A stretch of 32,000 nt of DNA from Candidatus Hadarchaeales archaeon (GTDB lineage: Archaea; Hadarchaeota; Hadarchaeia; Hadarchaeales; Hadarchaeaceae), in assembly GCA_038823825.1 (NCBI GenBank), contig JAWBCC010000001.1:270001-302000 (forward strand). The letters run 5' to 3'. Of this stretch, positions 6,609-30,075 are shown piece by piece (position 1 is the stretch's first letter; each line of letters starts with the position of its first letter). A program made the position numbers and the translations under genes. The notes under the pieces are model-generated. The model saw only the letters and a list, made by a program, of their open reading frames with translations. It ran no database searches and had not been told where the DNA came from.

Positions 6609-6620
6609 GCTCTTTCTCAC

Positions 6621-7985: not shown

Positions 7986-8002
7986 GCGTTTAAATTTTCT
8001 TG

Positions 8003-11648: not shown

Positions 11649-11702
11649 AAAAACAAAAAGATAATATTCCCTCTCCTTGATAATTATCTTTGGTGACTTT
11701 TT

Positions 11703-13987: not shown

Positions 13988-14032
13988 CTCGGAAACTTTT
14001 TAACCGTTTTTTGACAATATTTTGTGGAAGGC
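13988..14032 (+). promoter_or_regulatory. Putative promoter of the giant surface-protein gene
   Basis: AAACTTTTTAACC (about 13993-14005) is a TATA-like element about 28-35 nt upstream of ATG 14033. GGAAGG lies directly upstream of the ATG. Confidence 0.3.
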
Positions 14033-17000
14033 ATGAGGAAATTTCCGCTACTGGCGCTGGTGGTATTTGTTTTCTGCCACATCATAGCATTTGCTACATC
14101 GGGAGAAACCTTCATTGAGCGTGATTTTTCATCTCCGGAAATTTATCTCCAGGGAACTGAAGTTGTTGATGGAAAAGTCAGGCTCAGAATAGGACCGGAA
14201 CAGATTTCTGACAAGCTGAGCCTGCGCCTGGAGAAAATTGGCGGGGACAACTGGGTCTCTCTTGAAAATATCGAAAGCTGGGCGGATTACGATGGAAAGG
14301 CGATGGTGGGCGTTAAGGACGAGTATGGAAGAAGCTACATTTATGTTCTCTGGCGGAAAGGAAGCTATTCGGACGCATTTAGAAGGTACAACGTGTCAGC
14401 AAACAGATGGGAGGTTCTGTCGAGTCCAACCGAAAGCGGGCTAGATGTAGTGAAGAATGGCGTTTGTATGGCTTGGGACGGCGGACGTTATATATATGTC
14501 ATGCGTGGTGGCGCATATTCCGATTTCTACAGGGATTTCTGGAGGTATGACATAAAGACGAACACCTGGGAAATCTTGGAGAATACTCCATGGTATCAGG
14601 GTGCAGGAAATGCGATGGCATGGGTGCGACTTGATGGAAAGGAGTACATATATGCGATAATAGGAACTACTAGCTCATCTGCTGCGGCGGGCAGGCGAGG
14701 AATGGTTTTTGCCAGATTTAACATCGCTGCATGGGAGATGGACCCGGACAACGAACCTTCGAAGTGGGAGGTCATCCAGTGGGTTGGTGGATATAGCCGG
14801 TATGGGGTAAGTGGAACCATTCCATACGGATGTGATGACGGTTCGAGCATGGTTTGGACGGGAGATAATTATCTATACTACTTGGTCGGAGCATATAATG
14901 AAACATTGAGCGGACTAGAGGAGAGCCATTTTCTGCGATATCATCTCAAAGAGAACCGATGGGAGGAACTAGCGCCTATACCTTACAACGGAAGACCGGA
15001 GGACAGATCGGGTGTCGATGATGGAGGCACTATCGTCTGGGCAGGAGATTACATTTACGCCGTGAAGGGAGGAGATGGAGCAGGACATGATTACGCGGAC
15101 AATTTCTATCGCTACTGTATCAGCACGAACAGTTGGGAAAAGTTGGCAAATCTTCCAGAGGGTGTTGGAAGAAGAAACGGCAGTCGGTTAGCGGCGATAG
15201 ATGGTGTCGTTTATTTCCTGCGTGGCCACGGTTCAACAGGCTTTTGGAAGTACAATCCTCCGCTATTTTCTACAGCTGAGTCATTTTATTCGCGAGTTAT
15301 CGATGTCGGCGCGGAGACGGATTGGGGAAAGATATCCTGGTCTTACTCCAAGCCAGATGGGATAGTAGAAAGCGTGTTTCAAACTTCAGATGAGCCAAGC
15401 GCATTACCAGATGGTTCTAATAGGGTTGGTCAGATTCCGATTTGGTATCCCGCAGATCATCCAGTTATAAGCGAGTTTGCAACGAGAGGGCCCGACAACG
15501 CATATCAAGAGTTTATCGAGATATACAATCCCACATCCTCAGATGTTGATCTCACAGGATGGAAGATTCAGTACCGGTCAGTGACCGGCACGAGTTGGTA
15601 CGACAGGGTTGTATTTCCAAGCGGAGCGAAGATCCCTGCGTACGGTTTCTATCTTGCTGTAAATGGACAGGGGTATCCAGGAGGAGTGATCGAAGGTGTG
15701 CAGGGAGATGCTCAGATGACGGATACAATTGCGGACAGCGGACATTTGAGACTCGTAGATAATTTTGGCAATGTGTTGGATGCTGTCAGTTATGGAAGCG
15801 GTCATAATTATACTGAAGAAGGACCACCGGCCCCAAACCATGGAACTACAAAAAATAACAAGAGTGTAGAGCGGAGAGCCACACCATTTTCCACAATTGC
15901 TGACATGTTGGTCGGAGGCATGCATGAGAATTTAGGAAATGCTTGCGACACAAACAACAATTCTTTTGATTTCTTTGTAAGACCGGTGAGAAATCCTCAA
16001 AATTCTTTGAGCGCGCCCGAAATTCCACCAACTCCCATGCCACTTGCCAACTATTCGCAAACGTTCGTTTTAGATGGATTATTTGAAAACATTTCAGAGA
16101 AAATTGTAGGACAACAGTCACAAGTTTTCCTAGAGAATCAGCAAACCACAATAGTTTTGAAAGGCGATAATGTAAGTTCTCCGGATTTGATGAATGATGA
16201 AGATGGAATATATTTTGAGGTATTTTCTGTTCAGTCGTACATAACAGAGGAAAACTGGGAAAATATGGCGGCCTGGCCTGGACTTTTGACAAATGGAGCC
16301 GCTTGCTACGCTGAAAACATATTGTCGGGCAGAAAGTATGTTTATGCCCACGATACTAGACATCTCTACCGTTACGACATTGCGGCGGACTTGTGGGAGA
16401 ATATCGGACCCTTGCCGGCTCAGGCATTCGCCGGTAGCGGAATGGTGTGGACTAAAGATAATTACATTTACATGACCAAAGGAGGATACAGTCTTCCCAA
16501 TTTTTGGAGATATCACATCCCAGAAAACAAATGGGAAAACCTACCAAATGTTCCGATTGATCAGAGGACTGGAAGTTGCATCGCATGGGATGGAGGAGAT
16601 AAAATATATGGAATCTTCCAAGCTGTAACCGATAACGCACTCTATGTCTTCTCGATAAGTGATAATTCATGGACAAGATTGTACACGATAGTTTATGGTG
16701 GGACCCCGAGGAGTCCGGGAAGCGGTTCATCGCTCGTTGCGGTGGGCGGATATCTCTACTACGCAGTCGGCGGAATGAGCCAATACTGGAGATATAACAT
16801 TGCTGATAACACTTGGGATAGACTTGCGGGCGCTCCTGGAACATGGGGGGCTGGAGGAGCACAAGAAGTGATAAATGAGAATATCATTTATGCGGTTGGA
16901 TTCGGTAGTCCGAGAGTTGGATTCGGCAGATTCATAATACCAGAAAATCGATGGGTGAAAATGACGGACTTACCAGCGGCGATCAGCAATGCAAACGACA

Positions 17001-20000
17001 GACTTGTTTTCGATGGATCATTCACGTATCTGGTGAGGGCTTACGGAGACAACAGCTTCTGGAGATATCCCAAGCTTTCCTATCAATACGATATATCTAC
17101 TGAGTCTTCTCTCCGATTGAACTTACCACCTGGTTACCAAGTTGAAAACTTGTTAATTTATCTGAAATTTTCTTCGGAAAATGGGGCGACGTACTATCTT
17201 GGAATTTACAACTGGATAACGGGAACGTATAGTGAGAACTCCCTTAGGCATATCGGCGACAACACGGTTGAAAATGTTCTGGTTGTGAGAGTTACCGGGA
17301 GTGAATATGTCTCAAGCGATAACTTGATAAAAATCAGAATAAGATCTTCAGAGCCGATTGCTCATAAATTGCTAGCAGATAGGCTCGTAGCAGAGATTCA
17401 AGTCGCGAGGAATCAGTATGCGTTAAGGTGGGGTTATGTTTTCTCAGGTTTGGATAATTCATACGAAAATGCGGAAATAATGATCCTTGGCTTCTCCGAC
17501 AACGATGAAAACATAGAGATAAGTGTTTGGAAAAATTCAACTTCTAACTGGGTAAAGCTTGGTGTCCTGCCCGCTTCGCCGAACTTCATGTCTTTCAAAC
17601 TTTCTGACTTGCCAGATTACTTGATTGGGGGAGAAAATCTCTTCGTGAAATTCGAAGATTCAGACAGTATGGATTGGACACAGACGACTATTTACATCGA
17701 TTACTTAGCAGTTAGAGCTGTGAAATCTTACGGAACATCAATAGTTGTGGAAGTTCGTTTTGGATCAGACAACGATCCAACCGATGAGCCATTTCCTCCG
17801 GAAAATTGGACTGACTGGATTATTTTCAACGTTGGTGACAATCTTGCCTTTAGATCCAGATATCTCCAGTATCGCATTCAACTCTTCTCAACCGATTTCA
17901 GATTTTCACCGCTAGTTGAAGTGCTAGAGATAGAACATCTTCCGCTCATCTATCGGGAGGGCATTTTCGTAAGCCAACCACTCCTATTGGGCTACGTGGA
18001 CAGTTGGGGGGAGTTAAAGTTTGATGTGGACACACCGACAGATACATCGATAGAGTTCTTCACCAGGTCCTCACCAGATGGCTTTTTGTGGTCTGAGTGG
18101 GAGCCGCTCGATTCAAGAAACATTCGGAGCCCAGTCTACAACTGCAGATATCTGCAGGTCAAAGCTATTTTATATGGGTTTGGCTCATTGACCCCCGTTT
18201 TGAAGGAGTACTCGATAGAGTACGTTCCAGATAAAACACCACCAATCGTTACCGTTTCTGAACCTAGAGACGGATTTGTGACAACACAAGATAAGATAAT
18301 AGTGCGGGGCACGGTAAGCGACGCAAATCCGGTTAGGCTTGAAATAAACGGCATGCCGGTTATCTTCGAACCGGGAGCGTTTGAGAAAGAGGTCAGATTG
18401 AGTCCGGGACAGAATGTGATAAGGATAGTTGCCTCTGATGTTGCCGGTAACAAGAGGGAGATTCTCATCCGTGGAACAATGGAGATGGGTCAGCCAATTC
18501 GACCGGCGGTACCTCCCTCAACATACTTTGTCGCCGCAATGATTGTGGGAGGGGTTATCGCAGGTATTTCGCTAATATACATTTTTGCTCCAGCTTTTGT
18601 GAAGGTAGTAAGGAAGGGGAATTTGGTTTTTTTGAGTCTCGCCTTAGTCTTTCCAATTTTGTTTAGTGGCTCCGCTGCTGCTCTTTCCACTTGGGAAGGA
18701 TCCTGGGTAAGTGATTATAACGATTTTAGGTTTGGAGAATTTGAAAATGTGGCTTCGTTTACTTCAGGTGTTTTAGCCTTACAACCGGAAGAATATTGGG
18801 GAAATGATTTTGCTGCTTCATACTATTATACCGAATGGACGAACTTGGATTCGTTTGAGAAGAAGGTCTCAATAAGGTTTGTTGCACAGGCTTCAAAGAC
18901 CCTTACCGGATTTATGATTTATCTTTATCAGACCGGAACGGATCTCACTTGGAGATTTAGGCTAGAGTTGGACGATGGCACCGGAAAGCCCAGTGGGATT
19001 CTCGCTTGGTCAAATGCTTGGCAGACTCTGAAGGTCACAAGTAGCAAATGGTGGACCGTAGATCTCCTTTCGCCAGGCATGTTGCGAAAGGGTGAGACAT
19101 ATCATATAGTGATTTCTTGGGAAAACTTCGGTGTAGCGCCTTCTTCACAAGATTTCATAAATATTAGGAGCCTTTGGCCGTTTAATCAAACGTGGATAAA
19201 CGGTCTCGTAACGAACAATAACAGAGGAGTTTTGATCTTTGACGGTTCATCTTGGAAGGATCTAGGCCGAGAACCAGTTTATATCCTGAACTTTTCAGAT
19301 AAAACTTACGAGGGGAATCCTTATTACACGCTTAGGACGGATGCTTATGAAATCGGCGTTTTCGGGGACAACGCCAAAGGAGAGAGATTTCAAACGGATT
19401 TATTGAGAAGGGTTTGTGGTATCGAGGTTTACGCTAGAAAGAGCGGCACACCCCACGACAACCTTTATCTGGTTCTGCAGAGAGGAGCATCGACATTAGC
19501 AAGCGTCTCAGTTGGAGACTCGACCACTATTGAAAATAGGTGGGGATGGGTTGGAGCACTCTTCGATGCACCTTTGAGTCTATCTCCGGCACAGTACGTG
19601 GTGGGCTTGAAATCTCCAGGTTCAACGAGCGGAAACAGGTATGATGTTTGTCTACTTGGAACATATTCGTCCTCTCCACATCCTGATCTTACCTTTTCAG
19701 GGACCACAGCCTGTTTTGTCTACTCTACGAACGGTGGGATTACATGGTCGACCAAATCCAAGATGCAGGATGATATACCGTTTAGATTCATAGAATCATT
19801 CAAAAAATCGGGCATTTTCACTTCAAGAATTTTTGACGCTGGAGATATTATGAAGTGGGAGCGATTAAACTGGGATGGAAGAATCTTGGATGGGACTAGT
19901 TTGGTTTTCCAGACTAGAACCTCTACAGATAACGTTAGGTGGTCGCCTTGGGAGGATGTTGGTCCCGATAGTTCAATAACTTCCCCGCCAGGTAGATATA

Positions 20001-20455
20001 TCCAGTATAGAGTAATGTTTACAACGCAAAGCGAGTATGTTACACCAAGATTGAATAGGGTTTTGATATATTTTTCAGATGCCTCTCCGCCGAAGATTGT
20101 TTCTGCCACACCAAGGAGCGGTCAAACAGTTTTCTCTACTACACCTACTATCGAAATTGTACTTGATGACATCTCCGGAATTGATCAAGATTCAATAGTT
20201 CTGAAGGTCGATGGTCAGAAAGTGGATTTCTCTTATGATCCGGCAACGAAAACAGTCTGGTTTTTGCCGGACAAGGGGCTGTCAACGGGCGAACATGAAA
20301 TATTCATTTCTTTGCAGGACGGAGCTGGTAATCTGCTGGAGGAAAGATGGACGTTTTTGGTCAGCGTTGAAGAAGGTCTTCGAGTGGAGTGGATACTCGC
20401 AGCTTTAGTCGTTGCAATCTTAATTATCGTGTTTGTAATCAAGACCAAAAGGTAA
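14033..20455 (+). CDS. Giant (~2140 aa) secreted/membrane-anchored multidomain protein: signal peptide, six Kelch-like blades, lamin-tail domain, six more Kelch-like blades, beta-sandwich modules, Ig-like domain, TM hairpin, a second ectodomain with an Asp-box and an Ig-like domain, and a C-terminal TM anchor
   Basis: - Uninterrupted ORF. The track starts at GTG 14024; ATG 14033 gives MRKFPLLALVVFVFCHIIAFATS.
- Two sets of six repeats follow the pattern YIY.(x)GG....FWRY.(x)..N.WE.L (aa ~95-412 and ~755-1015).
- The LTD signature is VISEF...EFIEIYNPTSSDVDLTGWKIQY...HLRLVDNFGNVLDAVSYG (aa ~478-595).
- Hydrophobic segments lie at aa 1499-1526, 1533-1556 and 2122-2140.
- STNGGITWS is an Asp-box-like motif.
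- aa numbering follows the track ORF. Confidence 0.85.
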   Translation: MRKFPLLALVVFVFCHIIAFATSGETFIERDFSSPEIYLQGTEVVDGKVRLRIGPEQISDKLSLRLEKIGGDNWVSLENIESWADYDGKAMVGVKDEYGRSYIYVLWRKGSYSDAFRRYNVSANRWEVLSSPTESGLDVVKNGVCMAWDGGRYIYVMRGGAYSDFYRDFWRYDIKTNTWEILENTPWYQGAGNAMAWVRLDGKEYIYAIIGTTSSSAAAGRRGMVFARFNIAAWEMDPDNEPSKWEVIQWVGGYSRYGVSGTIPYGCDDGSSMVWTGDNYLYYLVGAYNETLSGLEESHFLRYHLKENRWEELAPIPYNGRPEDRSGVDDGGTIVWAGDYIYAVKGGDGAGHDYADNFYRYCISTNSWEKLANLPEGVGRRNGSRLAAIDGVVYFLRGHGSTGFWKYNPPLFSTAESFYSRVIDVGAETDWGKISWSYSKPDGIVESVFQTSDEPSALPDGSNRVGQIPIWYPADHPVISEFATRGPDNAYQEFIEIYNPTSSDVDLTGWKIQYRSVTGTSWYDRVVFPSGAKIPAYGFYLAVNGQGYPGGVIEGVQGDAQMTDTIADSGHLRLVDNFGNVLDAVSYGSGHNYTEEGPPAPNHGTTKNNKSVERRATPFSTIADMLVGGMHENLGNACDTNNNSFDFFVRPVRNPQNSLSAPEIPPTPMPLANYSQTFVLDGLFENISEKIVGQQSQVFLENQQTTIVLKGDNVSSPDLMNDEDGIYFEVFSVQSYITEENWENMAAWPGLLTNGAACYAENILSGRKYVYAHDTRHLYRYDIAADLWENIGPLPAQAFAGSGMVWTKDNYIYMTKGGYSLPNFWRYHIPENKWENLPNVPIDQRTGSCIAWDGGDKIYGIFQAVTDNALYVFSISDNSWTRLYTIVYGGTPRSPGSGSSLVAVGGYLYYAVGGMSQYWRYNIADNTWDRLAGAPGTWGAGGAQEVINENIIYAVGFGSPRVGFGRFIIPENRWVKMTDLPAAISNANDRLVFDGSFTYLVRAYGDNSFWRYPKLSYQYDISTESSLRLNLPPGYQVENLLIYLKFSSENGATYYLGIYNWITGTYSENSLRHIGDNTVENVLVVRVTGSEYVSSDNLIKIRIRSSEPIAHKLLADRLVAEIQVARNQYALRWGYVFSGLDNSYENAEIMILGFSDNDENIEISVWKNSTSNWVKLGVLPASPNFMSFKLSDLPDYLIGGENLFVKFEDSDSMDWTQTTIYIDYLAVRAVKSYGTSIVVEVRFGSDNDPTDEPFPPENWTDWIIFNVGDNLAFRSRYLQYRIQLFSTDFRFSPLVEVLEIEHLPLIYREGIFVSQPLLLGYVDSWGELKFDVDTPTDTSIEFFTRSSPDGFLWSEWEPLDSRNIRSPVYNCRYLQVKAILYGFGSLTPVLKEYSIEYVPDKTPPIVTVSEPRDGFVTTQDKIIVRGTVSDANPVRLEINGMPVIFEPGAFEKEVRLSPGQNVIRIVASDVAGNKREILIRGTMEMGQPIRPAVPPSTYFVAAMIVGGVIAGISLIYIFAPAFVKVVRKGNLVFLSLALVFPILFSGSAAALSTWEGSWVSDYNDFRFGEFENVASFTSGVLALQPEEYWGNDFAASYYYTEWTNLDSFEKKVSIRFVAQASKTLTGFMIYLYQTGTDLTWRFRLELDDGTGKPSGILAWSNAWQTLKVTSSKWWTVDLLSPGMLRKGETYHIVISWENFGVAPSSQDFINIRSLWPFNQTWINGLVTNNNRGVLIFDGSSWKDLGREPVYILNFSDKTYEGNPYYTLRTDAYEIGVFGDNAKGERFQTDLLRRVCGIEVYARKSGTPHDNLYLVLQRGASTLASVSVGDSTTIENRWGWVGALFDAPLSLSPAQYVVGLKSPGSTSGNRYDVCLLGTYSSSPHPDLTFSGTTACFVYSTNGGITWSTKSKMQDDIPFRFIESFKKSGIFTSRIFDAGDIMKWERLNWDGRILDGTSLVFQTRTSTDNVRWSPWEDVGPDSSITSPPGRYIQYRVMFTTQSEYVTPRLNRVLIYFSDASPPKIVSATPRSGQTVFSTTPTIEIVLDDISGIDQDSIVLKVDGQKVDFSYDPATKTVWFLPDKGLSTGEHEIFISLQDGAGNLLEERWTFLVSVEEGLRVEWILAALVVAILIIVFVIKTKR

Positions 20456-20457
20456 AA

Positions 20458-21732
20458 TCACATCCAGATCAAGTGGAGAAGCAGGTGACCGACGAGCACG
20501 GATGCGATCGTCGTTGGAACGCTTATCTTAAGATACTCTCTCAATTTTATCCTGTGTCCATGCTTTTCAAGAATTCCGACCGCAAAGACGTTTGCCGTGG
20601 CACCGACCGGGCTTATGTTTCCGCCAACGCCGGTTCCAATCAACATTCCAAAGAGGAACGGAAATGGGGAAACGCCTGTTACTTCTGCCAAGTGTTTACA
20701 GACCGGTATCATCAAGACCGTGTAGGGCACATTGTCCATGAACGAGGATATTGCGACAGACATCCAAGTGATCATCGCTAGCAAAAGTGTGGGACTTCCC
20801 GCGCTCACTCTGCTTATTCCGCCCGCGAAATCTTTGAGGAGTCCTATCTTGTCAACACCATTTATCACCAGGAATACACCAACAACAAAGAAAAATGAAT
20901 TCCAATCGAATTCCTTCATCATGGTGACAGATTTTTTGTGTGCAACGGCCAAGGAAATCAAACCAACAGCAAGTCCAGCAACTCCGGATGGTATTCCTAT
21001 TTTCTGACCGATTATGAGAAGAACGACTCCGAATGCTAGAATGAACGCGGGTAGGGGATTTATCTGGATTTCTTCTTCTTCAAGATGAGTTTTTTTCCTG
21101 AGTCTTTTTCCGATAACAAAATAGAGAGCGAGTAAGCCAGCAAGCACCCCGGCGACTGAGATAACCCCGATGCTGATCTTTCCTTGGAAGAGATAAAAAT
21201 CCCAAAACTTCATTCCAGTTTCTGCAGCGAGGATGATGGAAGGAGGATCTGCGACCATTGTTACCGTGGTTGACATGTTTGAAGATATTGCAACCGGCAC
21301 TAAGTAATAAAAAAGAGGTGTTCCAGTCTTTCTCGCAATTTCTATGAGGATTGGTGCCATGAGGAGAACAACTCCAACATTTTCGAGAAAGGCGGAAAGG
21401 AAAGCGGTTATTGCGCATAGAATTATGAGGGCAGACCCCTCACTGTCGGTTTTTCTGAGGAGATGGAAGGCGAGATATTTTGGGATCCCGCTGTCTGCAA
21501 AAATCATGGACAGCATCATGAAACCCCAATAAATCCCCAATACGTCCCATTTGATCGCGTCTACGATTTCTTTTGGTGAAGCGAGGTTTGAAAAGAGCAA
21601 GATGAGAGATATCGCTATGCCGGATGTTATCCCAATGTAAGCAATTTTCCATTTTCTTGTGATGGCGAACGCGTAACACAGAATGAAAATGATGAATGCC
21701 GAAATCTTGGCTATTTCCATTGGCTCACCCAA
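20458..21732 (-). CDS. Ion-transporter-superfamily permease (ArsB/NhaD / CitMHS-like)
   Basis: 424-aa polytopic membrane ORF. The track start is TTG 21732. ATG 21720, preceded by GGTGAG, is the more likely start (MEIAKISAFIIF...). It has two homologous halves with LENVGVVLLMAPI and FMDNVPYTVLMIP hairpin-like motifs typical of the family. Substrate not inferable. Confidence 0.75.
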   Translation of the reverse strand: MGEPMEIAKISAFIIFILCYAFAITRKWKIAYIGITSGIAISLILLFSNLASPKEIVDAIKWDVLGIYWGFMMLSMIFADSGIPKYLAFHLLRKTDSEGSALIILCAITAFLSAFLENVGVVLLMAPILIEIARKTGTPLFYYLVPVAISSNMSTTVTMVADPPSIILAAETGMKFWDFYLFQGKISIGVISVAGVLAGLLALYFVIGKRLRKKTHLEEEEIQINPLPAFILAFGVVLLIIGQKIGIPSGVAGLAVGLISLAVAHKKSVTMMKEFDWNSFFFVVGVFLVINGVDKIGLLKDFAGGISRVSAGSPTLLLAMITWMSVAISSFMDNVPYTVLMIPVCKHLAEVTGVSPFPFLFGMLIGTGVGGNISPVGATANVFAVGILEKHGHRIKLREYLKISVPTTIASVLVGHLLLHLIWM

Positions 21733-21763: not shown

Positions 21764-22714
21764 TTAAATCGCTCCCAGTCCTATCACGTAAAGAAGGAAA
21801 AGACAAATCACGACTAGGGGTATTAAGTTCTGCATTTTTGATTCGAATTTTTCCGCGTCTTCTACTTTTCCAGACTCAACTAGTCTCATAGCTTGCACGG
21901 AGACCAGGAGATTGTAAAGGAAGAGAGAATATATTACCAGCATTATTCTGTCAAAAAGAGTGAGATAGCCAAGCGCTGGAAGACCACTCAGCGCGGCCAG
22001 ATGATATGCTACGGCCGACATAAGTGTTGTTACGCAGATACTCACTCTCTGACCAAAGTTTTTGACGGAAATTGAAAACGAAAGCAGGGAAATCAGGGTA
22101 ATGATGATTATTGGAAATATCGTTTTGAAAAGGGCGGAAATCTTAGAGCGAAAAACTGTGACACCGAAGGCGAACGTTGAGAAGTTTTCATCCGGATAAA
22201 CGTGCTCGCTTACTCGGCACCTAAAATCCTTTACTTCCCATCCGGGCACTTGTAGGTTTGGATCAAGTCCGCTTTCTTCCAAATCAGGTTCGAAAACCAA
22301 TTGTGAAATACCTTTTTGTTTGTCTTCGATTTCTACTTGCAAAAGATGCTCATCGAATGGAAAGTTTCTGAAATTTAGGGAGCCGATATATGTCCCTTTT
22401 ACTCTGTATTCGATGTAATTTTCATTTTCTCTTTCTTCTTTCGTCACTAGCTCTATCCTTGAAGGAGCGCCACGCAAGAACTCTATATTCGGTTCTACGT
22501 CTTTGTATTTGAACCATATGTAGAAATCTATCGTAAAAGTTTGGGATGGGACGTCCACTTTTTCTATCGCATTGATCCACACTCCGACTTTCACAACGGA
22601 CGGATTCGTTTGTGATGTGTCCTTATTGTCCGCTACTTGTCCATATACATTCATACTGTTGAGCACTACTAAGGATGTGGCCAGAATTATTGCAAGAGCG
22701 AGGTGTCTTTTCAT
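21764..22714 (-). CDS. Pentameric ligand-gated ion channel homologue (prokaryotic Cys-loop-less pLGIC, GLIC/ELIC-like)
   Basis: - 316-317 aa (GTG 22717 or ATG 22714), with a signal peptide.
- The beta-rich ectodomain carries VKVGVWINAIEKVDVPSQTFTIDFYIWFKYKD (beta1-beta2) and the hallmark loop LNFRNFPFDEHLLQVEIE (FPFD at 22352-22363).
- VPGWEV precedes three closely spaced TM helices. The M2 region is GQRVSICVTTLMSAVAYHLAALSGLP.
- A short M3-M4 loop and a fourth TM helix follow.
- It aligns block by block with my recollection of GLIC. Confidence 0.8.
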   Translation of the reverse strand: MKRHLALAIILATSLVVLNSMNVYGQVADNKDTSQTNPSVVKVGVWINAIEKVDVPSQTFTIDFYIWFKYKDVEPNIEFLRGAPSRIELVTKEERENENYIEYRVKGTYIGSLNFRNFPFDEHLLQVEIEDKQKGISQLVFEPDLEESGLDPNLQVPGWEVKDFRCRVSEHVYPDENFSTFAFGVTVFRSKISALFKTIFPIIIITLISLLSFSISVKNFGQRVSICVTTLMSAVAYHLAALSGLPALGYLTLFDRIMLVIYSLFLYNLLVSVQAMRLVESGKVEDAEKFESKMQNLIPLVVICLFLLYVIGLGAI

Positions 22715-22807
22715 CACAGAATATAGACATAGTGGATTTTTATTGTTTGCTTTTTGTCATACAGTTAGCAACAGATTCTGGCATAAGAATGAATTCTCGT
22801 GTGGTAT

Positions 22808-22900
22808 TGGCGGGCCCGGTGGGATTTGAACCCACGACTACCCGGTTTCCCCCGTGGTGGTCCGAAGCCGGGCATCCTGTCCTGGCTGGATCACGGGCCC
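22808..22900 (-). tRNA. Intron-containing tRNA, most likely tRNA-Arg(UCG), with genomically encoded CCA
   Basis: - Minus-strand sequence: GGGCCCG-TG-ATCC-AGCCAGGACA-GGAT-G-CCCGG-CTTCGG[ACCACCACGGGGGAA]A-CCGGG-TAGTC-GTGGG-TTCAAAT-CCCAC-CGGGCCC-G-CCA.
- It folds into a perfect 7-bp acceptor stem, 4-bp D stem, 5-bp anticodon stem and 5-bp T stem, with a GTTCAAATC T-loop.
- A 15-nt insertion sits at the canonical 37/38 intron position.
- The anticodon assignment depends on the exact intron boundaries. Confidence 0.8.
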
Positions 22901-23204: not shown

Positions 23205-23591
23205 TCAGTAAACGTAGGCTAGGAGCTTCCCGCCTAGGCCCAGATCTTTAGCCTCTTTATGCGTCATCAATCCTTTAGATGTTGTCATTATCAATATACC
23301 CATCTCCGCAGCCGGTAGAAATCTCTTTTCCCAACTTTCAAGTTCCTTATTTTTAACCGAATATCTTGGTTTTATTGGTCCACAGGCGTTTATTTTCCCA
23401 GACAGTAAAACTCTGGCTTTTGGCTTATCTTCTTTTAGGATTTCGAAATCTTTAATGTATCCTTCTCTTTTCATTATCTCAAGACTTTGGATTATCAGCT
23501 TCGACACTGGAGTGATCACGACTTCCTTCTTCCTAGCTCGCTCCGCATTCATAATTTTCGACAGAGCATTGGACAGAGGATCTAAAAGCAT
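23205..23591 (-). CDS. rps8: 30S ribosomal protein S8 (uS8)
   Basis: 128-aa ORF MLLDPLSNALSKIMNAERARKKEV...GGKLLAYVY, in the canonical position after S14. Confidence 0.95.
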   Translation of the reverse strand: MLLDPLSNALSKIMNAERARKKEVVITPVSKLIIQSLEIMKREGYIKDFEILKEDKPKARVLLSGKINACGPIKPRYSVKNKELESWEKRFLPAAEMGILIMTTSKGLMTHKEAKDLGLGGKLLAYVY

Positions 23592-23601
23592 CTATCCCAC
23601 C

Positions 23602-23754
23602 TCAGCTATATTTTCTGAAACCCATTTTTGGGGCCAGCTCCCGGAAACACTTTCTACAAAGAAGTAACCCATGACACTGGTAAACTTTCCTATATCTACC
23701 GCAAACTTTACACCGCCTTGCTCCTTTTCCGAATTTTCGCTCCTTTTTCTCCAC
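23602..23754 (-). CDS. rps14: 30S ribosomal protein S14 type Z (uS14)
   Basis: Below the ORF-track size cutoff. Manual translation from GTG 23754 gives (M)[49 protein letters not shown] (50 aa), with the CxxC...CxxC zinc ribbon. It starts 3 nt after the L5 stop and ends 10 nt before the S8 ATG. Confidence 0.9.
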
Positions 23755-23756
23755 GG

Positions 23757-24266
23757 TTAATCCACCACCTTTACATTAAATTTCTTGCTTATGAATTCTA
23801 TCGCCTCTTCCTTCGTTACTCTGTGGCTCTTTGGAATCGCTCTGGCTAGTCTCTTACGATCTCTTATCCGATATCCTGGTCTGCAAAGACTCACACAAAC
23901 GTCTAACCCAAAGATACCAACTTCCGGATTATATTTACATCCAGGTATGTCAATATGTTCTTTTATTCCAAAAGAAAAGTTTCCCTTATCATCAAATGAG
24001 GATGCTTTTATCCTTCTGTCCACAGCATAGAGAAGCCTGTCGAGAACTTCTTCCGCAATCTTTCCTCTGAGCGTCACCTTACATCCGATGGGAGCTCCTC
24101 TCTTGATATTCCACTCCCTCACAGTCTTTTTAGCCAGAGTTCTGATGGGATTTCTTCCCGTTATTTCCTTTAGAATTCTCTCAGCGTTTGCCAGTCTATC
24201 ACCCCCCTCACCAACTCCGATATTGAGAACAACCTTCTCTATTCTGACTTCTCTCATAGAATTCAT
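23757..24266 (-). CDS. rpl5: 50S ribosomal protein L5 (uL5)
   Basis: 169-aa ORF with [19 protein letters not shown] and conserved operon position. Confidence 0.95.
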
Positions 24267-24979
24267 GCTGCAACACCCACGTCTACAAGGGGTTTCTCAT
24301 CACCGAGCACAAACACATAGTTTACGGATGTTTCTATTTTTTCTCCGTTAGTCGAAAGTCTAACAGTTTTGGTTTCTTTTTTTATCTCCTCTATTCTTCC
24401 GATTTTACCCGTATGTTGTCCATCCGTCACAACCGCAAGTTTGTTTTCAGAGAGTGGAATGTGCTTTAGGAGCTCTCCATCCGGAACCGAAAGCTCAATG
24501 ACATCCCCGATCCCAATATCTTTCAAATCTCCAACAATATTTCTTCCATCATGCATAGTGAGTTGAATTTTTCCTCCACGAACGCACTGTTTTTTTACAA
24601 CTTTGCAAAGCTTCTTACCGGCTTCTTCTTTGTTGGTTTCCAATAGCTTCAGCCTTCCAAGTTCATCGATAAAAACACGATATGTTTTGTTTATGTCAGG
24701 AATCTCCAAAATATCCATAAATCCAACCGGAAATCTTGGATCTCTTCTTACCACACCATCCACAATCACTTTGCCAGAGAATATGATTCTGTCGGCTTCT
24801 TTCGCTGTTCCCGCTAATTTCAGGTAATCTCGAACTATTATTCGAAGAGGAATAGACTTATCCACAGGATGTGGACCGGGTATCGGTTTCGTCAACCATT
24901 TGCTTGATTTAACGGGCAACCTCATTACCGGTGGCATTGAATAGCGTTTGATCTGTTTTCTTCCACCCATCTTTGCCAT
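24263..24979 (-). CDS. rps4e: 30S ribosomal protein S4e (eS4)
   Basis: 238-aa ORF with GPHPVDKSIPLRIIVRDYLKLA and FPVGFMDILEI. It overlaps the L5 start by 4 nt. Confidence 0.95.
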   Translation of the reverse strand: MAKMGGRKQIKRYSMPPVMRLPVKSSKWLTKPIPGPHPVDKSIPLRIIVRDYLKLAGTAKEADRIIFSGKVIVDGVVRRDPRFPVGFMDILEIPDINKTYRVFIDELGRLKLLETNKEEAGKKLCKVVKKQCVRGGKIQLTMHDGRNIVGDLKDIGIGDVIELSVPDGELLKHIPLSENKLAVVTDGQHTGKIGRIEEIKKETKTVRLSTNGEKIETSVNYVFVLGDEKPLVDVGVAA

Positions 24980-24983
24980 TCTC

Positions 24984-25331
24984 TCACCTCTTCAGGATTT
25001 TCTCCCTCCATTTATCCTGCGCAAGCTCTATAATCATCACGTTGGAAGGATGCACGGGTCTAGGAACCGCAGTCCCGTCAGCTTTTGTGACGGTTACCCC
25101 CTCTACGTATATTCTACCTTTTTTCCGATCTACCCTTGTGACATTACCCTCATGATTTTTGAAATCTCCACGCAGAATTCTAACTTTGTCACCCTTTCTT
25201 ACGGGAAGACTCCTCTTTCCAAACTTTTCAGCAAGTTCTCTAGCCAAATGTGCGCTTACAAATTTTTTTCTCGCGTGAACCGGCGCAGAATGGATTCTCT
25301 TTCTTTGTTTTCTCGGCTTCTTGCTAACCAT
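24984..25331 (-). CDS. rpl24: 50S ribosomal protein L24 (uL24)
   Basis: 115-aa ORF with a KOW motif region: VRKGDKVRILRGDFKNHEGNVTRVDRKKGRIYVEG. Confidence 0.95.
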   Translation of the reverse strand: MVSKKPRKQRKRIHSAPVHARKKFVSAHLARELAEKFGKRSLPVRKGDKVRILRGDFKNHEGNVTRVDRKKGRIYVEGVTVTKADGTAVPRPVHPSNVMIIELAQDKWREKILKR

Positions 25332-25334
25332 ACT

Positions 25335-25760
25335 TCACATCACCATTGAGGCAATCCCAGCAACCTTGGGCCATCTTTCGGCTGCTTCTTTGGCCATCGG
25401 TCCTTTTATCTCAGAACCTTTAGGCGATCCGTCGGGATTTATTATGACTGCAGCATTATCTTCAAATTTTATTCTAATTCCATCGGTTCGGCGATACTCT
25501 TTCCTCTGTCGTATTATAACTGCCTGAGCAAGCTGCTTTTTGAGTTCCGGAGTTCCCTTCTTTATTGACACAATAACAGAGTCGCCAACTCCAGCTTTTG
25601 GCATTCTCTTCCTAGTCCCATGATAACCGATCACGCTGATTATCTGAAGTTCCTTAGCTCCGGTGTTATCTGCGCACACCAATCTCGCTCCTACGGGCAA
25701 TACCTTCGTTGGTTTCACTGGAGACACTCCAAACGCTTCACCAGCCCCTTTCTTTCCCAT
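25335..25760 (-). CDS. rpl14: 50S ribosomal protein L14 (uL14)
   Basis: 141-aa ORF with [19 protein letters not shown] and [25 protein letters not shown]. Confidence 0.95.
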
Positions 25761-26062
25761 TATCCGCCACCTCCCAGCTTCTCAACGACGACGAAAGACT
25801 TAGTTTTACTCAGCCGTCTGCATTCCATTATTCTAACTCTATCGCCAATTTTCGCATTTATACACGGCGGGTTGTGCGCATGTATTTTTGATGTCCTCCT
25901 CTCATATCGCTCATATTTTGGAACATAATGTAATCTTTCGATTTGCACAGTGACGGTTTTCATCATTCTGTCGCTAACGACGATGCCCTCAAGTACCCTG
26001 CCCCTCACTGAAAGTTGCCCATGCAGCGGACACTTTGGATCGTTGCATTTTTGTTCAGCCAT
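25760..26062 (-). CDS. rps17: 30S ribosomal protein S17 (uS17)
   Basis: 100-aa ORF with [33 protein letters not shown] and [18 protein letters not shown]. Confidence 0.95.
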
Positions 26063-26064
26063 GT

Positions 26065-26337
26065 TTATCTCGCCTTCTTTATTCTATCTTCTGGTCTTCC
26101 TACGATTCTCCTTCCTTCTAATTTAATTTCCTTTCCGTCGGGAAGGGTTAAAAAGAAAACGGATGTCTCCTTTGGTATTTTTTTAGGCCCGTTCTTCGTC
26201 TCTAAAACAATCATTTTTTTGCTTTCATCGATAATCTTGCCTTCCAATCCAATCAGCGACCGACATGAGCTCGTCAGAATTTTTACCTTTAGACCAATGA
26301 GTTCGTGTTTTGCAATATCTTTTTCGGATATCTTCAT
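26065..26337 (-). CDS. rnp1: RNase P protein component 1 (Rpp29/Pop4 homologue)
   Basis: 90-aa ORF with [37 protein letters not shown]...IPKETSVFF...[18 protein letters not shown] (Sm-like fold pattern). It holds the conserved archaeal position between SUI1/L29 and S17. Confidence 0.88.
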
Positions 26338-26344
26338 TTCAAGA

Positions 26345-26647
26345 TCACTTCAAATCAATCATTTCAGACGAAAAACCAAGTTCCACAAGGATTTCCTTCA
26401 CTTTCTCCCTGTGATCTCCCTGCAATTCTACGTGGTTGTTCTTAACCGTTCCTCCACAAGCCAATCTAGACTTTAAAGTCTTTGCAATATCCTTCATGGA
26501 TTCTTGACTTACTCCTTCAACAATCGTAACGACTTTACCAAACTTTCTTTTGACAGAATATACCTGAATTCTCTGTTGCTCGCGAGAAATTTCCCGACAA
26601 ACACAGAGATCCTTCGGAAGACCACAGATCTTGCAGATCTCAGGCAG
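26345..26647 (-). CDS. Translation initiation factor aIF1 (SUI1 family), apparent CTG start
   Basis: Missing from the ORF track. Manual translation gives (L/M)[99 protein letters not shown] (100 codons). It matches archaeal SUI1 end to end, including the N-terminal Cys knuckle and the GGTVK/ELQGDHR core. GGAGGGGGA (26654-26662) lies 6 nt upstream of the CTG at 26647-26645. Confidence 0.85.
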
Positions 26648-26873
26648 TTTTGATCCCCCTCCCTTGTCGCTTCTCCCTTGCGATTGTCAATATTCTTGCA
26701 ATATCGCGCTTTATCTGTCTGATTTTCATAGGATTCTCAAGAGTACCACCAGCCTTGACAACTGCCCTGGCTCTTGCAAGTTCAGCTCTAAGCTCTCTAA
26801 GTTTCTCCTTCATTTCCTCCTCGCTCATCGCTCTTATTTCCTTCGCTTTCAGAGACGTCCACCTCCTCCACAA
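26640..26873 (-). CDS. rpl29: 50S ribosomal protein L29 (uL29)
   Basis: 77-aa ORF with [30 protein letters not shown]...[18 protein letters not shown]. The start is uncertain because it overlaps the S3 3' end by 77 nt. Confidence 0.9.
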
Positions 26874-27471
26874 CTTTAGGTCCTTCTATCCAAATTTTGT
26901 CCAGAATTGGAGCATCTGGTGGAAGTATCCATACCTTCACTCCTATTGTTCCGGGCTTAGTTAAAGCTTGTGCATAACCATAACTTACATATTTCTGAGC
27001 TAGATCTCCAGTCTTAACGAGATATCCTTGATAAAACCTGACTCGTTTCTTTCTTTCTCCGGCGATCTTCCCAGCAATCACGATCTCGGCCCCCTTGGCT
27101 CCTGCCTCCATTATCCTTCGCAACATCATCTGTCCGACTCTTCTAACGTTTATGCCTCGCTCAATAGCGAAGGCTATTCTTTTGGCCATTATGGGGGCGC
27201 AAAGCTCTGGATTTTTTATCTCAAGGACTTCTATCTGAGGTCTCTCAATTTTGAATCTTTTTTCCAATTCCTCTTCCAGTTGATGTATTTTTCCTCCTTT
27301 TTTTCCGATCACCATTCCCGGTCTTTCAACATAAAGAGCAACTCTCGTCCCAGTTGGAAGCCTTCTGATATCTACGCCAGCATATCCTGCTCTTCCGAGT
27401 GTTTTCTCCAAGAACGTCTCAAGCTCGACTTTTTTGATTCCCATTTCAACGAATTTATCTTTTACGGCCAT
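26797..27471 (-). CDS. rps3: 30S ribosomal protein S3 (uS3)
   Basis: 224-aa ORF with a KH domain: [22 protein letters not shown]. The C-terminal domain has [19 protein letters not shown], followed by an acidic tail. Confidence 0.95.
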
Positions 27472-27930
27472 TCAGCTCTCCTCCTTCAAGATTATTTCTA
27501 CGTTGGTTAACGGTCTATTCGCTGGCGTAGCTCTTCCAAATGCTCTTGGCATTATTCCAGGAATGACAATCCCTTTATATGCGCTGGCATGCGCGATCAC
27601 GAGCTTTTCCTCGTCCATCCCCTTGTATTTAGCGTTTTCTTCCGCATTCTTCAAGATTTTCAGAATTTCGGTAGCAGCTTTAACCGGATATGCTCCCGGA
27701 CCGATTCCGGTCTTGTGAGCTAACTTCTTTTTATGTGTACGATATGGAACAGGTCTTTTCTTTTTCTTTACCTCTTCCAGAAATTTTTTGGCTTCGCTTA
27801 GTTTCATCCCACGGATTGCCCGACATATTTCGACAGCGTCCTTTGGAGAAATTCTCAATTCTCTACCATAAGCCTTTGCACAAGGTTCGGGTATCTCTCT
27901 AGAATAGCCAAACTTTGGCATCGCAATCAC
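27472..27930 (-). CDS. rpl22: 50S ribosomal protein L22 (uL22)
   Basis: 152-aa ORF with [37 protein letters not shown]. Confidence 0.95.
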
Positions 27931-28319
27931 TTCAGTGGTATGAACATCGAGCTTCTAGTGGCTCCTATACCAGGTGCCCCATGTACAACTCTTTTTCTTG
28001 TCTGAACAAACTCGCCCAATCTGTGGCCAATCATCTCAGGAACTATTTCAATTGTCACAAACTCCTTCCCGTTGTGAACTGCAAACTTCATACCAACCAT
28101 TTCTGGAAGTATTATCATGTCTCTCAAGTGTGTGCGTATTGGCTTCTGAATATTGTTTTCTTTCCATTTTCTGATCTTTTCAAGAAGTTTTTTGTGTCTT
28201 GGTGAAAACCCCCTCATGATTGTTCTTCTCTGTCTAGCTGGAAGTAATTTGGCGAACTCGATTAAAGACATTTTCTGAAGCTGGTCAAGGGTATATCCTC
28301 TATAAGTGTACTTCTTCAT
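27927..28319 (-). CDS. rps19: 30S ribosomal protein S19 (uS19)
   Basis: 130-aa ORF with [29 protein letters not shown]. Confidence 0.95.
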
Positions 28320-28324
28320 CTACA

Positions 28325-29032
28325 TCACCTCTTACCAGTTCTCCTAGCAGCAATCAGTCCAACCTTCTGTCCCGGCGGCGCACCTCTTCTGATGGTTTTT
28401 GGTCTACCCGCATGTCTCCCTCTACCGCCCCCAAAAGGATGATCGACCACGTTCATCGCCACTCCTTTGACTCTTGGATACGGCTTGCCCTTTGCCAACA
28501 TCAGATGATATTTCTTTCCAGCCTTTAGAAAAGGTTTTTCGTCTCTTCCTCCTCCAGCTACTACACCTATAGTTGCTCTACATCTTGGATCCAGCTCCTT
28601 GAGTTCTCCAGAAGGTAGCTGCACTATTGCTTTTCCTACATCATGCGAAACCAAGATCGCGTATGTGCCTCCCGCTCTCGCCAGTTTTCCACCATCGCCC
28701 GGCTTAAGCTCCACATTATGGATGAGGGTTCCCTCCGGAATTTCCGCGAGTGGCAAAGTGTTTCCAGGTTTTATGGGTGCCGAAGGCGAAGCCATTATTT
28801 TGTCTCCTACCTTTATACCCTCAGGAGCGAGAACGAGTCTCTCCTGTCCATCTTTATATCTTATCCTTGCAACTGGAGCGCTCCTTCCCGGATCATGAAT
28901 GATGTCGACTACCACAGCCTCTCCATCTCTAAGTGGCGGAAGTTTTATCTCTCCAACTCTCCGCCAAGATTTCGCCCGATAAGTTGGGGATCCCTTTCCT
29001 ATTCGCTGAGCTCTGATTATCTTTCCCATCAT
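28325..29032 (-). CDS. rpl2: 50S ribosomal protein L2 (uL2)
   Basis: 235-aa ORF with GNTLPLAEIPEGTLIHNVELKPGDGGKLARAGGTYA and NVVDHPFGGGRGRH. Confidence 0.97.
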   Translation of the reverse strand: MMGKIIRAQRIGKGSPTYRAKSWRRVGEIKLPPLRDGEAVVVDIIHDPGRSAPVARIRYKDGQERLVLAPEGIKVGDKIMASPSAPIKPGNTLPLAEIPEGTLIHNVELKPGDGGKLARAGGTYAILVSHDVGKAIVQLPSGELKELDPRCRATIGVVAGGGRDEKPFLKAGKKYHLMLAKGKPYPRVKGVAMNVVDHPFGGGRGRHAGRPKTIRRGAPPGQKVGLIAARRTGKR

Positions 29033-29292
29033 ATCACCTCCAGTTTGGTGGCCAGATCCATTGCGGAATACTCCGGTGCTAGTTTGACATATGCAAGTTT
29101 CTCGCCTTTCGGACTCCGCAGGATATTGACTTTAACGACTTTCACCTGATAAAGCGCCTCGACCGCTCTTTTAACGTCTATTTTGTTCGCGTCGTCTGCT
29201 ACCACAAAGACGAGTTTATTTTCAGATTCTATCATTCTTACCGCTTTTTCGCTCATTTTAGGATACCTTATGACTTTTTGTGGATCCTTCAT
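29029..29292 (-). CDS. rpl23: 50S ribosomal protein L23 (uL23)
   Basis: The track ORF starts at 29334. ATG 29292 (MKDPQKVIRYPKMSEKAVRMIESENKLVFVV...) overlaps the L4 stop (ATGA) and gives the usual length of about 87 aa. Confidence 0.92.
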   Translation of the reverse strand: MKDPQKVIRYPKMSEKAVRMIESENKLVFVVADDANKIDVKRAVEALYQVKVVKVNILRSPKGEKLAYVKLAPEYSAMDLATKLEVI

Positions 29293-30068
29293 GCGAACAT
29301 GCCTCCAAGTTTTTCTATCGCTTTTTCTGTCCATATTGTTAGTCTCCCCGGTATCCCTCCAGGAGCCAAAAGCTCCGCATTTAGACCTTCAACTGTAGTG
29401 ACATTAACCCCGGGGATATTACGTGCCCCTTTTGTTATTCCTCTGTCTTCTCCCACCACAATAAGTGGTCCGGTAGGCACTCGATATTTTCTACCCCTCA
29501 TTTTTCCTCGTCCGCTTCTTATTTTTGTGTTTCTCATAACCCTTTCTACATCTTTCCAAACACCAATATTTTTAAGAAACTTTTCTACTTCTTTGGCAGA
29601 CTTTAATTCTTCTATCTCTGCAGACACCACCAGCGGAAATTCGGGTATTCCGTCGACAACGTGTCCTCTCTTCATAACAAGCTTTCGGTCTTTTGTTGCA
29701 GCGATCGCAGACATTACAGCTAACTTTTTTTCCTTTTTGTTTATTTTCTCTACCAGCTTTTTCTCCGGTTTCGGTGGATGGGCTCTTCTGCCCCCCACAG
29801 CATGCGGAACAAATCCAGCTCTTCCGGCAGCGGGATATCTGGTTCCTTTTACTCTTGGAACTCTTGAAACACCATAACCCTTACCCCAAGGTTCGGCTGT
29901 GGTTCTTTTACCAGCCATCTCATCCGGGCCGTATGGTTGCCGACGAGCGCTCTGGATCGCGTGAACGGCGCGTCTTATGACGTCTGTACGGATATCTGTT
30001 TCAAAAACTTTTGGCAAGGTTATCTTTTTTGCGACCTTTCCATCAAGCGAATAAACATTTACTTCCAT
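29289..30068 (-). CDS. rpl4: 50S ribosomal protein L4 (uL4)
   Basis: 259-aa ORF with GKRTTAEPWGKGYGVSRVPR and RSGRGKMRGRKY motifs. Confidence 0.95.
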   Translation of the reverse strand: MEVNVYSLDGKVAKKITLPKVFETDIRTDVIRRAVHAIQSARRQPYGPDEMAGKRTTAEPWGKGYGVSRVPRVKGTRYPAAGRAGFVPHAVGGRRAHPPKPEKKLVEKINKKEKKLAVMSAIAATKDRKLVMKRGHVVDGIPEFPLVVSAEIEELKSAKEVEKFLKNIGVWKDVERVMRNTKIRSGRGKMRGRKYRVPTGPLIVVGEDRGITKGARNIPGVNVTTVEGLNAELLAPGGIPGRLTIWTEKAIEKLGGMFA

Positions 30069-30075
30069 ACATTAC

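Follow-up and report, generated by a model that had tools for sequence, protein, structure and literature searches.

What does the gene that follows a ribosomal-protein operon in a hadarchaeal genome encode, and what would its product do for the cell? The gene lies on the minus strand (21764..22717) of a 32,000-nucleotide stretch of DNA from a Candidatus Hadarchaeales archaeon (assembly GCA_038823825.1, contig JAWBCC010000001.1, positions 270,001 to 302,000), the whole of which we analysed and hereafter call the window. An earlier reading of the letters (the original prediction) saw in its 317-residue open reading frame (ORF) every element of a minimal prokaryotic pLGIC (pentameric ligand-gated ion channel). 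Each of the listed elements is present, and the ORF almost certainly encodes a channel subunit of the pLGIC family. Taken as a whole, our best explanation goes further, and we hold it with reasonable confidence: a functional, vertically inherited gene of its host, for a ligand-gated channel that would be anion-preferring or poorly selective.

The gene, its promoter-like element and the parts of its product are as follows, all on the minus strand.

22736..22743, minus strand: TATA-like box ATAAAAAT, its centre about 26 nt upstream of the ATG (sequence reading)
21764..22717, minus strand: complete pLGIC (Pro-loop receptor) subunit gene (ORF list, GLIC homology, AlphaFold2 model)
22640..22717, minus strand: predicted signal peptide, residues 1-26 (MMKRHLALAIILATSLVVLNSMNVYG, then Q; n-, h- and c-regions by sequence reading)
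22145..22639, minus strand: extracellular beta-sandwich, residues 27-191, about 165 aa (DSSP of the model, GLIC alignment)
22352..22363, minus strand: Pro-loop signature at the beta6-beta7 loop tip, F119-P120-F121-D122 (codons ttt cca ttc gat)
22073..22144, minus strand: M1 helix, residues 192-215, with kink proline P202 and preceded by the pre-M1 R190 (DSSP of the model)
21989..22057, minus strand: M2 pore-lining helix, residues 221-243 (DSSP of the model, gapless GLIC alignment)
22046..22054, minus strand: putative charge-selectivity filter G222-Q223-R224 at -2', -1' and 0' (codons ggt cag aga)
21875..21958, minus strand: M3 helix, residues 254-281, with D256; P247 and Y251 of the M2-M3 loop come before it (DSSP of the model)
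21767..21865, minus strand: M4, residues 285-317, an amphipathic N-terminal extension (285-297) and then a membrane span to the C-terminus (DSSP of the model)

The frame has 317 codons from a GTG at 22717, or 316 from the adjacent ATG at 22714, and the interval given includes its TAA stop (21766-21764). The ATG is the likely start codon. It is the NCBI start for a 99%-identical protein of 316 aa (P0001), and the interval 21764-22714 first proposed for the gene runs from this ATG to the stop. Archaeal promoters keep a characteristic distance from the start of transcription, and by this rule the position of the TATA-like box suggests that the gene is transcribed from a promoter of its own into a leaderless mRNA.

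Among proteins of known structure, the nearest relative is GLIC of Gloeobacter violaceus (PDB 3EAM/4HFI). A phmmer search of all PDB chains returned GLIC as the top match (E=1e-14), with residues 101-288 aligned to GLIC 102-289 without gaps but for a few single-residue indels. Moreover, a profile made from an alignment of the protein with 45 homologs (46 sequences, which also underlie the structural model and the column counts given below) finds GLIC with E=2.4e-32, in a match that spans profile positions 31-305 of 309 and with them practically the whole mature protein. NCBIfam models match as well (LGIC_1, E=9e-15, with a score far below its equivalog-style cut-off; TIGR00860, E=1.8e-14). Pfam, the check that had been proposed for this gene, gives a divided answer: by E-value both PF02931 (2.2e-4) and PF02932 (8.4e-5) are significant, but their respective bit scores of 21.2 and 23.4 lie below the gathering cut-offs of 26 and 28.1. 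These shortfalls speak against the assignment, yet homology is settled despite them by the profile match to GLIC. They are also the reason that public records label the protein 'hypothetical'. Almost all public copies carry this name; the exception is a Hadarchaeum yellowstonense protein with the UniRef name 'Neurotrans...', an automatic pLGIC domain name.

The fold agrees. We modelled a single chain with AlphaFold2 (AF2) and obtained a mean predicted local distance difference test score (pLDDT) of 91.6 and a predicted template-modelling score (pTM) of 0.78. The model consists of nine strands (40-55, 60-71, 78-81, 83-95, 100-111, 123-132, 140-144, 160-173 and 178-189 by DSSP) followed by four helices. 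Foldseek places GLIC first in the PDB (E=3e-23, template-modelling (TM) score 0.78, 19% identity) and then GABA-A, GlyR and sTeLIC chains (TM 0.65-0.75); all four kinds of channel are matched with probability 1.00, at TM 0.72-0.78. Likeness of this order goes well beyond chance. A match to the family and a beta-sandwich followed by four membrane helices, on which the original prediction had staked itself, are both found.

Comparison with the superfamily sharpens the assignment. GLIC shares with the hadarchaeal protein its subunit architecture and size, the absence of Cys-loop cysteines and of an intracellular domain, and a C-terminal M4; even the numbering coincides from about residue 101 onwards (P120, F121, D122, W160, P247, Y251). 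ELIC, sTeLIC and DeCLIC have the same fold and are likewise prokaryotic and Cys-less (for sTeLIC, Foldseek E=2.4e-21 and TM 0.73), but they match more weakly than GLIC. All three are cation-selective channels that respond to amines, alkaline pH or Ca2+ as gating or modulating signals; their ectodomain is full-length and their loop C longer. The anion-selective Cys-loop receptors also fall below GLIC in fold likeness (TM 0.65-0.75).

The seven most conserved positions of the superfamily have been tabulated, the proline of [F/Y]-P-x-D being 100% conserved (Jaiteh et al. 2016, PMC4795631, Table 1). All seven signature residues are present (F119, P120, D122, W160, R190, P202 and P247), and they are 70-100% conserved in the clade that the protein forms with its relatives from Hadarchaeales, Nitrososphaeria and Bathyarchaeia. 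Within the Pro-loop, position 120 is P in 46/46 sequences, 119 is F or Y in 46/46, 121 is F in 35/46, and 122 is D in 32 and E in 14. R190 aligns with GLIC R192 and is found in 45/46; W160, P202 and P247, the counterparts of GLIC W160, P204 and P247, are each found in 46/46. In GLIC the pre-M1 arginine (R192) is the salt-bridge partner of the Pro-loop aspartate, and W160 is buried in beta9. The metazoan Cys-loop pair (C-x13-C) is absent: the positions 8 before and 6 after P120 are G112 and L126, the latter invariant and hydrophobic, as is typical for prokaryotic members. The FPFD loop without flanking cysteines was therefore read correctly.

So too was most of the topology. The N-terminus is signal-peptide-like (KRH, a hydrophobic stretch, then VYG before Q), and the model has a helix at 3-24 followed by a disordered, low-confidence linker at 27-35; cleavage would probably occur after residue 26. 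The pre-M1 arginine sits in the expected FRSK (R190), M1, M2 and M3 follow one another, only 3 residues separate M3 from M4, and M4, helical at 285-316 in the model, ends the protein. The mature ectodomain (residues 27-191) has about 165 residues rather than the 190 at first estimated. Sequence and model together support a minimal prokaryote-type pLGIC subunit, a relative of GLIC and ELIC.

Where does this subunit depart from GLIC? The alignment leaves GLIC residues 52-73 (22 aa, the beta2-beta3 loop and beta3) without a counterpart. Strand beta2 is joined via 'KDVE' directly to the 'PNIEF' strand, the equivalent of GLIC 'PEIRF' (loop A), and the protein has 3 fewer residues than GLIC before beta6 and 2 fewer in loop C, which is reduced to a 4-residue turn, Y174-P-D-E177. 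We compared 75 clade members with the 144 nearest more distant 50%-identity cluster representatives. The link between beta2 and beta4 is 7-20 residues long in nearly all 144 distant representatives and 30 in GLIC; the clade has the shortest form, with 8. The predicted shortening relative to GLIC between beta2 and beta6 is thus real, but it is not peculiar to this channel, and we rejected the idea of a uniquely short ectodomain. By contrast, the minimal loop C occurs in 73/75 clade members and in 9/144 distant representatives.

Some distant representatives of this compact subfamily have long N-terminal extensions before the channel module (P0202, 701 aa; P0141 and P0148, 492 aa; P0104, 455 aa). 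These extensions recall multi-domain bacterial pLGICs such as DeCLIC.

Between ectodomain and pore, the residues expected to do the coupling vary little or not at all: D55 in the beta1-beta2 loop, F119-P120-F121-D122, R190, P247 and Y251, the exceptions being positions 119, 121 and 122. Positions equivalent to the inter-subunit ligand pocket are also invariant across homologs of 38-89% identity. They comprise Y66 (loop D), E79 and F80 (loop A), Y101, E103 and R105 (loop E), K133 (loop B), D152 (loop F) and Y174 (loop C). The Y101/E103/R105 group corresponds to the Y102/E104/R105 triad of GLIC. Because the model is a monomer, we took the geometry of pocket and pore from the GLIC alignment.

The pore holds the second departure. 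M2 aligns to GLIC without gaps, and the rings at 2' (S226), 6' (T230), 9' (M233), 13' (A237) and 16' (L240) are GLIC-like; S244 stands at 20'. The cytoplasmic mouth is different. The -2' glutamate of GLIC (E222) is replaced by G222, followed by Q at -1' (45/46) and R at 0' (46/46), so that the acidic cation filter of GLIC at -2'/-1' is absent from this protein (G222, Q223). The motif [G/S/A]-Q-R is found in 73/75 clade members and the arginine at 0' in 75/75. Not one of the 75 has D or E at -3' to -1', whereas 91/144 distant representatives have D or E at -2' or -1'. A histidine at 15' (H239) is conserved in 75/75.

Does this mouth resemble that of the anion-selective GlyR, GABA-A and GluCl receptors? 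In part. The M1-M2 loop is 2 residues longer than that of GLIC, where a 2-residue gap is needed, but the M1-M2 segment aligns without gaps to the transmembrane domain of GABA-A alpha1 (chimera 5osa), with G-Q-R over P-A-R. The uncharged -1', the arginine at 0' and the spacing from the M1 proline to 0' are shared with these receptors, whose P-A-R filter is marked by an uncharged -1', a basic 0' and an M1-M2 loop longer by one residue with proline at -2'; and the invariant D256 of M3, which GLIC lacks, stands at the position of the aspartate in the eukaryotic 'AMDW' motif. Unlike those receptors, the hadarchaeal protein and its clade have G, S or A at -2' rather than proline, and the protein lacks the Cys-loop disulfide, the N-terminal helix and the long M3-M4 loop. 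We dropped the idea that M2 is GlyR-like: a count by hand gave 7/14 identities to both GlyR alpha1 and nicotinic acetylcholine receptor (nAChR) alpha7, and because the two are equal M2 as a whole is not specifically of the anionic type. The argument that we keep is that of filter and spacing, which comes from the computed alignment.

At the cytoplasmic mouth, basic residues (K219, R224) are the only ones that can ionise, and an acidic ring is missing; we therefore expect anion preference or poor selectivity. For metazoan receptors, a correlation has been stated of cationic selectivity with GE[K/R] and of anionic selectivity with A[R/K] (Jaiteh et al. 2016, PMC4795631). Three points weigh on the other side. 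The -2' to 0' motif is generally insufficient to predict the selectivity of prokaryotic members (Jaiteh et al., PMC4795631). The net charge of the ectodomain, -11, would make the vestibule more favourable to cations. And when the -1' glutamate alone is neutralised in nicotinic receptors, conductance falls and selectivity is not always inverted. On balance, an open pore that is either anion-preferring or non-selective seems somewhat the better supposition from the filter residues; anion preference by itself is tentative, and there we lean slightly the other way.

How might the channel open? The titratable residues implicated in the proton activation of GLIC are E26, D32, E35, D122, E222, H235, E243 and H277 (Nemecz et al. 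2017, PMC5760087). In the hadarchaeal protein E26 becomes A50, E35 becomes Q59, E222 becomes G222, H235 becomes A235, E243 becomes L243 and H277 becomes A276. Of the GLIC set only D122 is kept, along with D55 of the beta1-beta2 loop, which adjoins the D32 position; across the clade the E35 position is Q, G, N or S. Since most of the GLIC sensors are thus non-titratable here, gating by protons in the manner of GLIC is unlikely, and the conserved pocket residues make gating by a ligand, rather than GLIC-type proton sensing, a modestly favoured prediction.

Two observations temper this prediction. With a loop C of only four residues, a classical capped orthosteric site cannot form. Moreover, GLIC is still proton-gated when its entire loop C is deleted (PMC4485021), and a non-orthosteric or pH-type trigger is for that reason possible; H239 at 15' and the triad shared with GLIC could form its basis. 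The strongest rival takes this to its end and holds that the protein is a cation-selective channel of the GLIC type, opened by extracellular protons. GLIC does come first by sequence, profile and fold, its pore rings and triad are kept, the 15' histidine is universal in the clade, the ectodomain is net negative, and GLIC itself needs no loop C for proton gating. Against this stand the 19% identity, the replacement of the -2' glutamate by Gly, Ser or Ala, the lack of D or E from -3' to -1' in all 75 clade members, and the loss of the key sensor E35 together with E26, H235, E243 and H277. We consider a GLIC-type channel quite unlikely.

Under the explanation that we prefer, of a ligand-gated channel with an anion-preferring or poorly selective pore, the protein might work as follows. 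The signal-peptide-like N-terminus would export the subunit, leaving the ectodomain outside and M1-M4 in the membrane, and five identical copies would assemble round a central pore; this homopentamer is extrapolated from a monomer model. A small polar extracellular ligand could then bind the inter-subunit pocket lined by Y66, E79/F80, Y101/E103/R105, K133, D152 and Y174. Binding would be passed to the pore through the conserved FPFD tip, the pre-M1 arginine, the beta1-beta2 aspartate and the M2-M3 proline, and would open a gate in M2 predicted at M233 (9') and L240 (16'). The open pore would pass anions or be poorly selective, and through it a chemical outside the cell would bring about a change in the cell's membrane potential or its ion content. 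The physiological role of microbial pLGICs is unknown for all members, GLIC included (Jaiteh et al. 2016, PMC4795631).

Is the protein an oddity of one genome? The original prediction had called the family very rare in archaea, and this view is outdated. A pattern scan with one genome per species found at least 118 GTDB species genomes that encode a relative, and the best 80 of these are all archaeal: 10 labelled Hadarchaeales, Hadarchaeota, Hadesarchaea or Hadarchaeum, 5 Nitrososphaeria, one Nitrosocaldus and about 60 Bathyarchaeia. Among the 80 relatives listed by protein search, Hadarchaeales-type sequences share 61-99% identity with the query, those of Nitrososphaeria 49-55% and those of Bathyarchaeia 40-47%. 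A profile search of 1.84 billion cluster representatives gave 14,071 matches at E<=1e-3, of which 903 were at E<=1e-30; outside the clade, the nearest representatives belong to Nitrosocaldus, Nitrososphaerota and Bathyarchaeota, with a Myxococcales bacterium next. To judge from isolate names (Tengchong, Kamchatka, Yellowstone), most carriers probably come from hot springs.

These relatives extend what was on record. Tasneem and colleagues reportedly found archaeal pLGIC genes in Methanosarcina in 2005. A later survey lengthened the list by 10 archaeal genera, among them a Thaumarchaeota clade and further Euryarchaeota, with no match in Crenarchaeota; we found no mention of Hadarchaeota or Bathyarchaeia in its text (Jaiteh et al. 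2016, PMC4795631). [quoted passage not shown] Hadarchaeota and Bathyarchaeia members likewise went unmentioned in the literature we searched, and we found nothing there on ligand-gated channels together with Bathyarchaeota, nor any characterised archaeal pLGIC, which agrees with the original prediction. We know of no archaeal member that has been characterised. The hadarchaeal protein is one of an archaeal clade that is widespread yet undescribed, itself part of a large subfamily with compact ectodomains that is uncharacterised as well.

In a neighbour-joining (NJ) tree the Hadarchaeales sequences (12 loci and the window) form one clade, at 62-91% identity; besides the 10 loci labelled as hadarchaeal, the 12 comprise L014 and L020, which bear the labels 'uncultured archaeon' and 'Methanobacteriota archaeon' and are placed here by the tree. 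The sister of this clade is the Nitrososphaeria group, and Bathyarchaeia branch outside the two; the sister relationship is tentative because the tree carries no support values. Mean identities are 48% between Hadarchaeales and Nitrososphaeria, 40% between Nitrososphaeria and Bathyarchaeia, and 42% between Hadarchaeales and Bathyarchaeia. The tree fits vertical inheritance within Hadarchaeales and, at most, an ancient exchange between phyla.

Two metagenome-assembled genomes (MAGs) encode two paralogs each (L011 and L013 in JZ-2_201705_bins_153; L031 and L038 in DRTY-6_201912_bins_40), so that heteromeric assembly or sub-functionalisation is conceivable in some archaea.

The gene is also kept as a working gene would be. 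Compared with an 89%-identical ortholog (L090), it has a non-synonymous divergence (dN) of 0.057, a synonymous divergence (dS) of 1.18 and a dN/dS of 0.049. A 99.4%-identical copy is present in GCA_038841605.1, another Candidatus Hadarchaeales archaeon MAG, with its neighbours arranged alike (ribosomal proteins L2 to S8, pLGIC, CitMHS, giant Kelch protein), an order shared by L090 and L009.

Could the neighbours reveal the function? Two of them adjoin the gene directly.

22811..22900, minus strand: intron-containing tRNA gene, placed after the ribosomal-protein operon and before the pLGIC gene (Rfam RF00005, 51.8 bits)
20458..21732, minus strand: gene for an IT-superfamily (CitMHS/ArsB-like) anion transporter, downstream of the pLGIC gene (Pfam CitMHS, 5.9e-57)

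A second rival would join the channel and this transporter into a two-gene unit, with the channel acting, for example, as a sensor or shunt for the substrate of the transporter. The two genes are on the same strand, the transporter probably starts at ATG 21720 with a Shine-Dalgarno-like GGTGA 6 nt upstream, the gap between the genes is 31-44 bp with no obvious terminator read in it, and the pair is kept in the window, in L089 (99% identity), in L090 (89%) and in L009 (80%). However, when we took the ORFs up to 3.5 kb away from the gene at 89 loci and clustered them by BLASTP, the transporter adjoined it in 2/89 (the window and L009), or in 4/91 with the later-added L089 and L090. The pairing occurs only in the closest relatives, other copies have different neighbours, and for this reason it looks like local synteny by descent rather than a functional link. 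We regard such a unit as improbable; co-transcription may occur, only in the sub-lineage where the two genes adjoin.

The same 89 loci contain no conserved operon partner. We rejected the idea of one because no neighbour family occurs in more than 12 of the 89 loci; the most frequent are generic ABC ATPases (12/89) and the rest occur in 8 or fewer. Other Hadarchaeales copies adjoin glutamine synthetase/NUDIX or MFS/radical-SAM genes. Thermoproteota copies (Nitrososphaeria, Bathyarchaeia) adjoin UbiA or H+-PPase genes, as in the pairs UbiA with heliorhodopsin and ApbE with H+-PPase. The channel is best regarded as a stand-alone gene. In one Nitrososphaeria genome (L006, 7778-8598), a heliorhodopsin gene, seemingly split into two ORFs, has the pLGIC homolog about 0.9 kb upstream.

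A further possibility, hinted at when checks of GC content, codon usage and phylogeny were first proposed, is recent horizontal acquisition into a housekeeping region. The gene does interrupt a ribosomal-protein operon after S8, beside a tRNA gene, a classic integration landmark, and the grouping of Hadarchaeales with Nitrososphaeria in the NJ tree, against phylum relationships, hints at an ancient transfer between phyla. On the other hand, the composition is native when set against 28 window genes (synonymous-codon fit z=-1.2, GC z=-1.2, GC at third codon positions z=+0.35, all within about 1.2 standard deviations), the Hadarchaeales sequences are monophyletic, and the L090 ortholog has the same flanking genes at a dS of 1.18. 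No integrase or repeats were noted, and any transfer would be ancient. Recent transfer, which we rejected on composition and monophyly, is very improbable. Least credible of all is that the fold is kept in a non-conducting membrane-anchored receptor or structural protein, which the unusual filter and minimal loop C might suggest, since the pore rings and every residue coupling the ectodomain to the membrane domain are conserved under strong purifying selection and the protein has no extra output domain, only the minimal channel module.

The archaeal housekeeping neighbourhood that had been described for the gene is borne out. The ribosomal-protein operon (23205-31948, minus strand) encodes L2, S19, L22, S3, L29, SUI1, RNase P p29, S17, L14, L24, S4e, L5, S14 and S8. 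It ends after S8, without the usual L6/L32e/L19e/L18/S5 continuation, and is followed by the tRNA, the pLGIC and the CitMHS genes; the same break after S8 is seen in both close relatives checked (L089, 1-5510, and L090). The tRNA gene has a 15-nt intron and a genomically encoded CCA; it was missed by default ARAGORN and found in intron mode. Its anticodon is UCG (Arg) if the intron is spliced at the canonical 37/38 position. ARAGORN intron mode calls TCA ('SeC'), which looks like the result of a mis-placed splice site.

On the other side, an ORF at 14024-20455 (plus strand) converges on the transporter gene. Its product of 2143 aa, a giant surface protein, has a signal-peptide-like N-terminus, a membrane anchor at the other end and, between them, several Kelch beta-propellers along with lamin-tail, Ig-like and glucodextranase domain B segments; this Kelch gene adjoins the CitMHS gene in L089 and L090 also. 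Further to the left, 488-13987 is rich in genes for the maturation of tRNA and the translation machinery: Bud32 and Kae1 (KEOPS), CCA-adding enzyme, GatD/GatE, archease beside RtcB, and an RNA methyltransferase. RtcB is the tRNA-splicing ligase and archease its activator. As listed, the methyltransferase ORF has about 260 nt in common with RtcB, and its true start therefore probably lies further downstream. This half of the window also contains a GT4 glycosyltransferase and three ORFs of 345, 230 and 410 aa (3654-4691, plus strand; 4679-5371 and 5388-6620, minus strand) with no Pfam match at E<=1e-5.

What does the clade mean for the family? It is coherent, under strong purifying selection and present in many thermophilic archaeal MAGs, and it is nearly unnamed in public records. 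The gains are incremental within a well-known superfamily, with the acid-free filter and the minimal loop C as the clade-specific features of note. The natural 'deletions' (no beta3, a 4-residue loop C) bear on the minimal ectodomain needed for gating and on the need for capping by loop C, and the acid-free filter bears on what determines charge selectivity in channels without the metazoan motifs. Coming from a thermophile, the channel may also be a convenient structural target. The boldest proposal, which as a whole we think unlikely, is that the Hadarchaeales/Nitrososphaeria/Bathyarchaeia clade is the first naturally anion-selective prokaryotic pLGIC, thermostable and minimal, without beta3 or a functional loop C, and gated by a small zwitterionic or charged metabolite (such as an amino acid) at E79, R105, K133, D152, Y66 and Y174. 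If this were true, anion selectivity and gating of the amino-acid type would have arisen outside eukaryotes, and structural biology would gain a heat-stable minimal model of permeation like that of inhibitory receptors.

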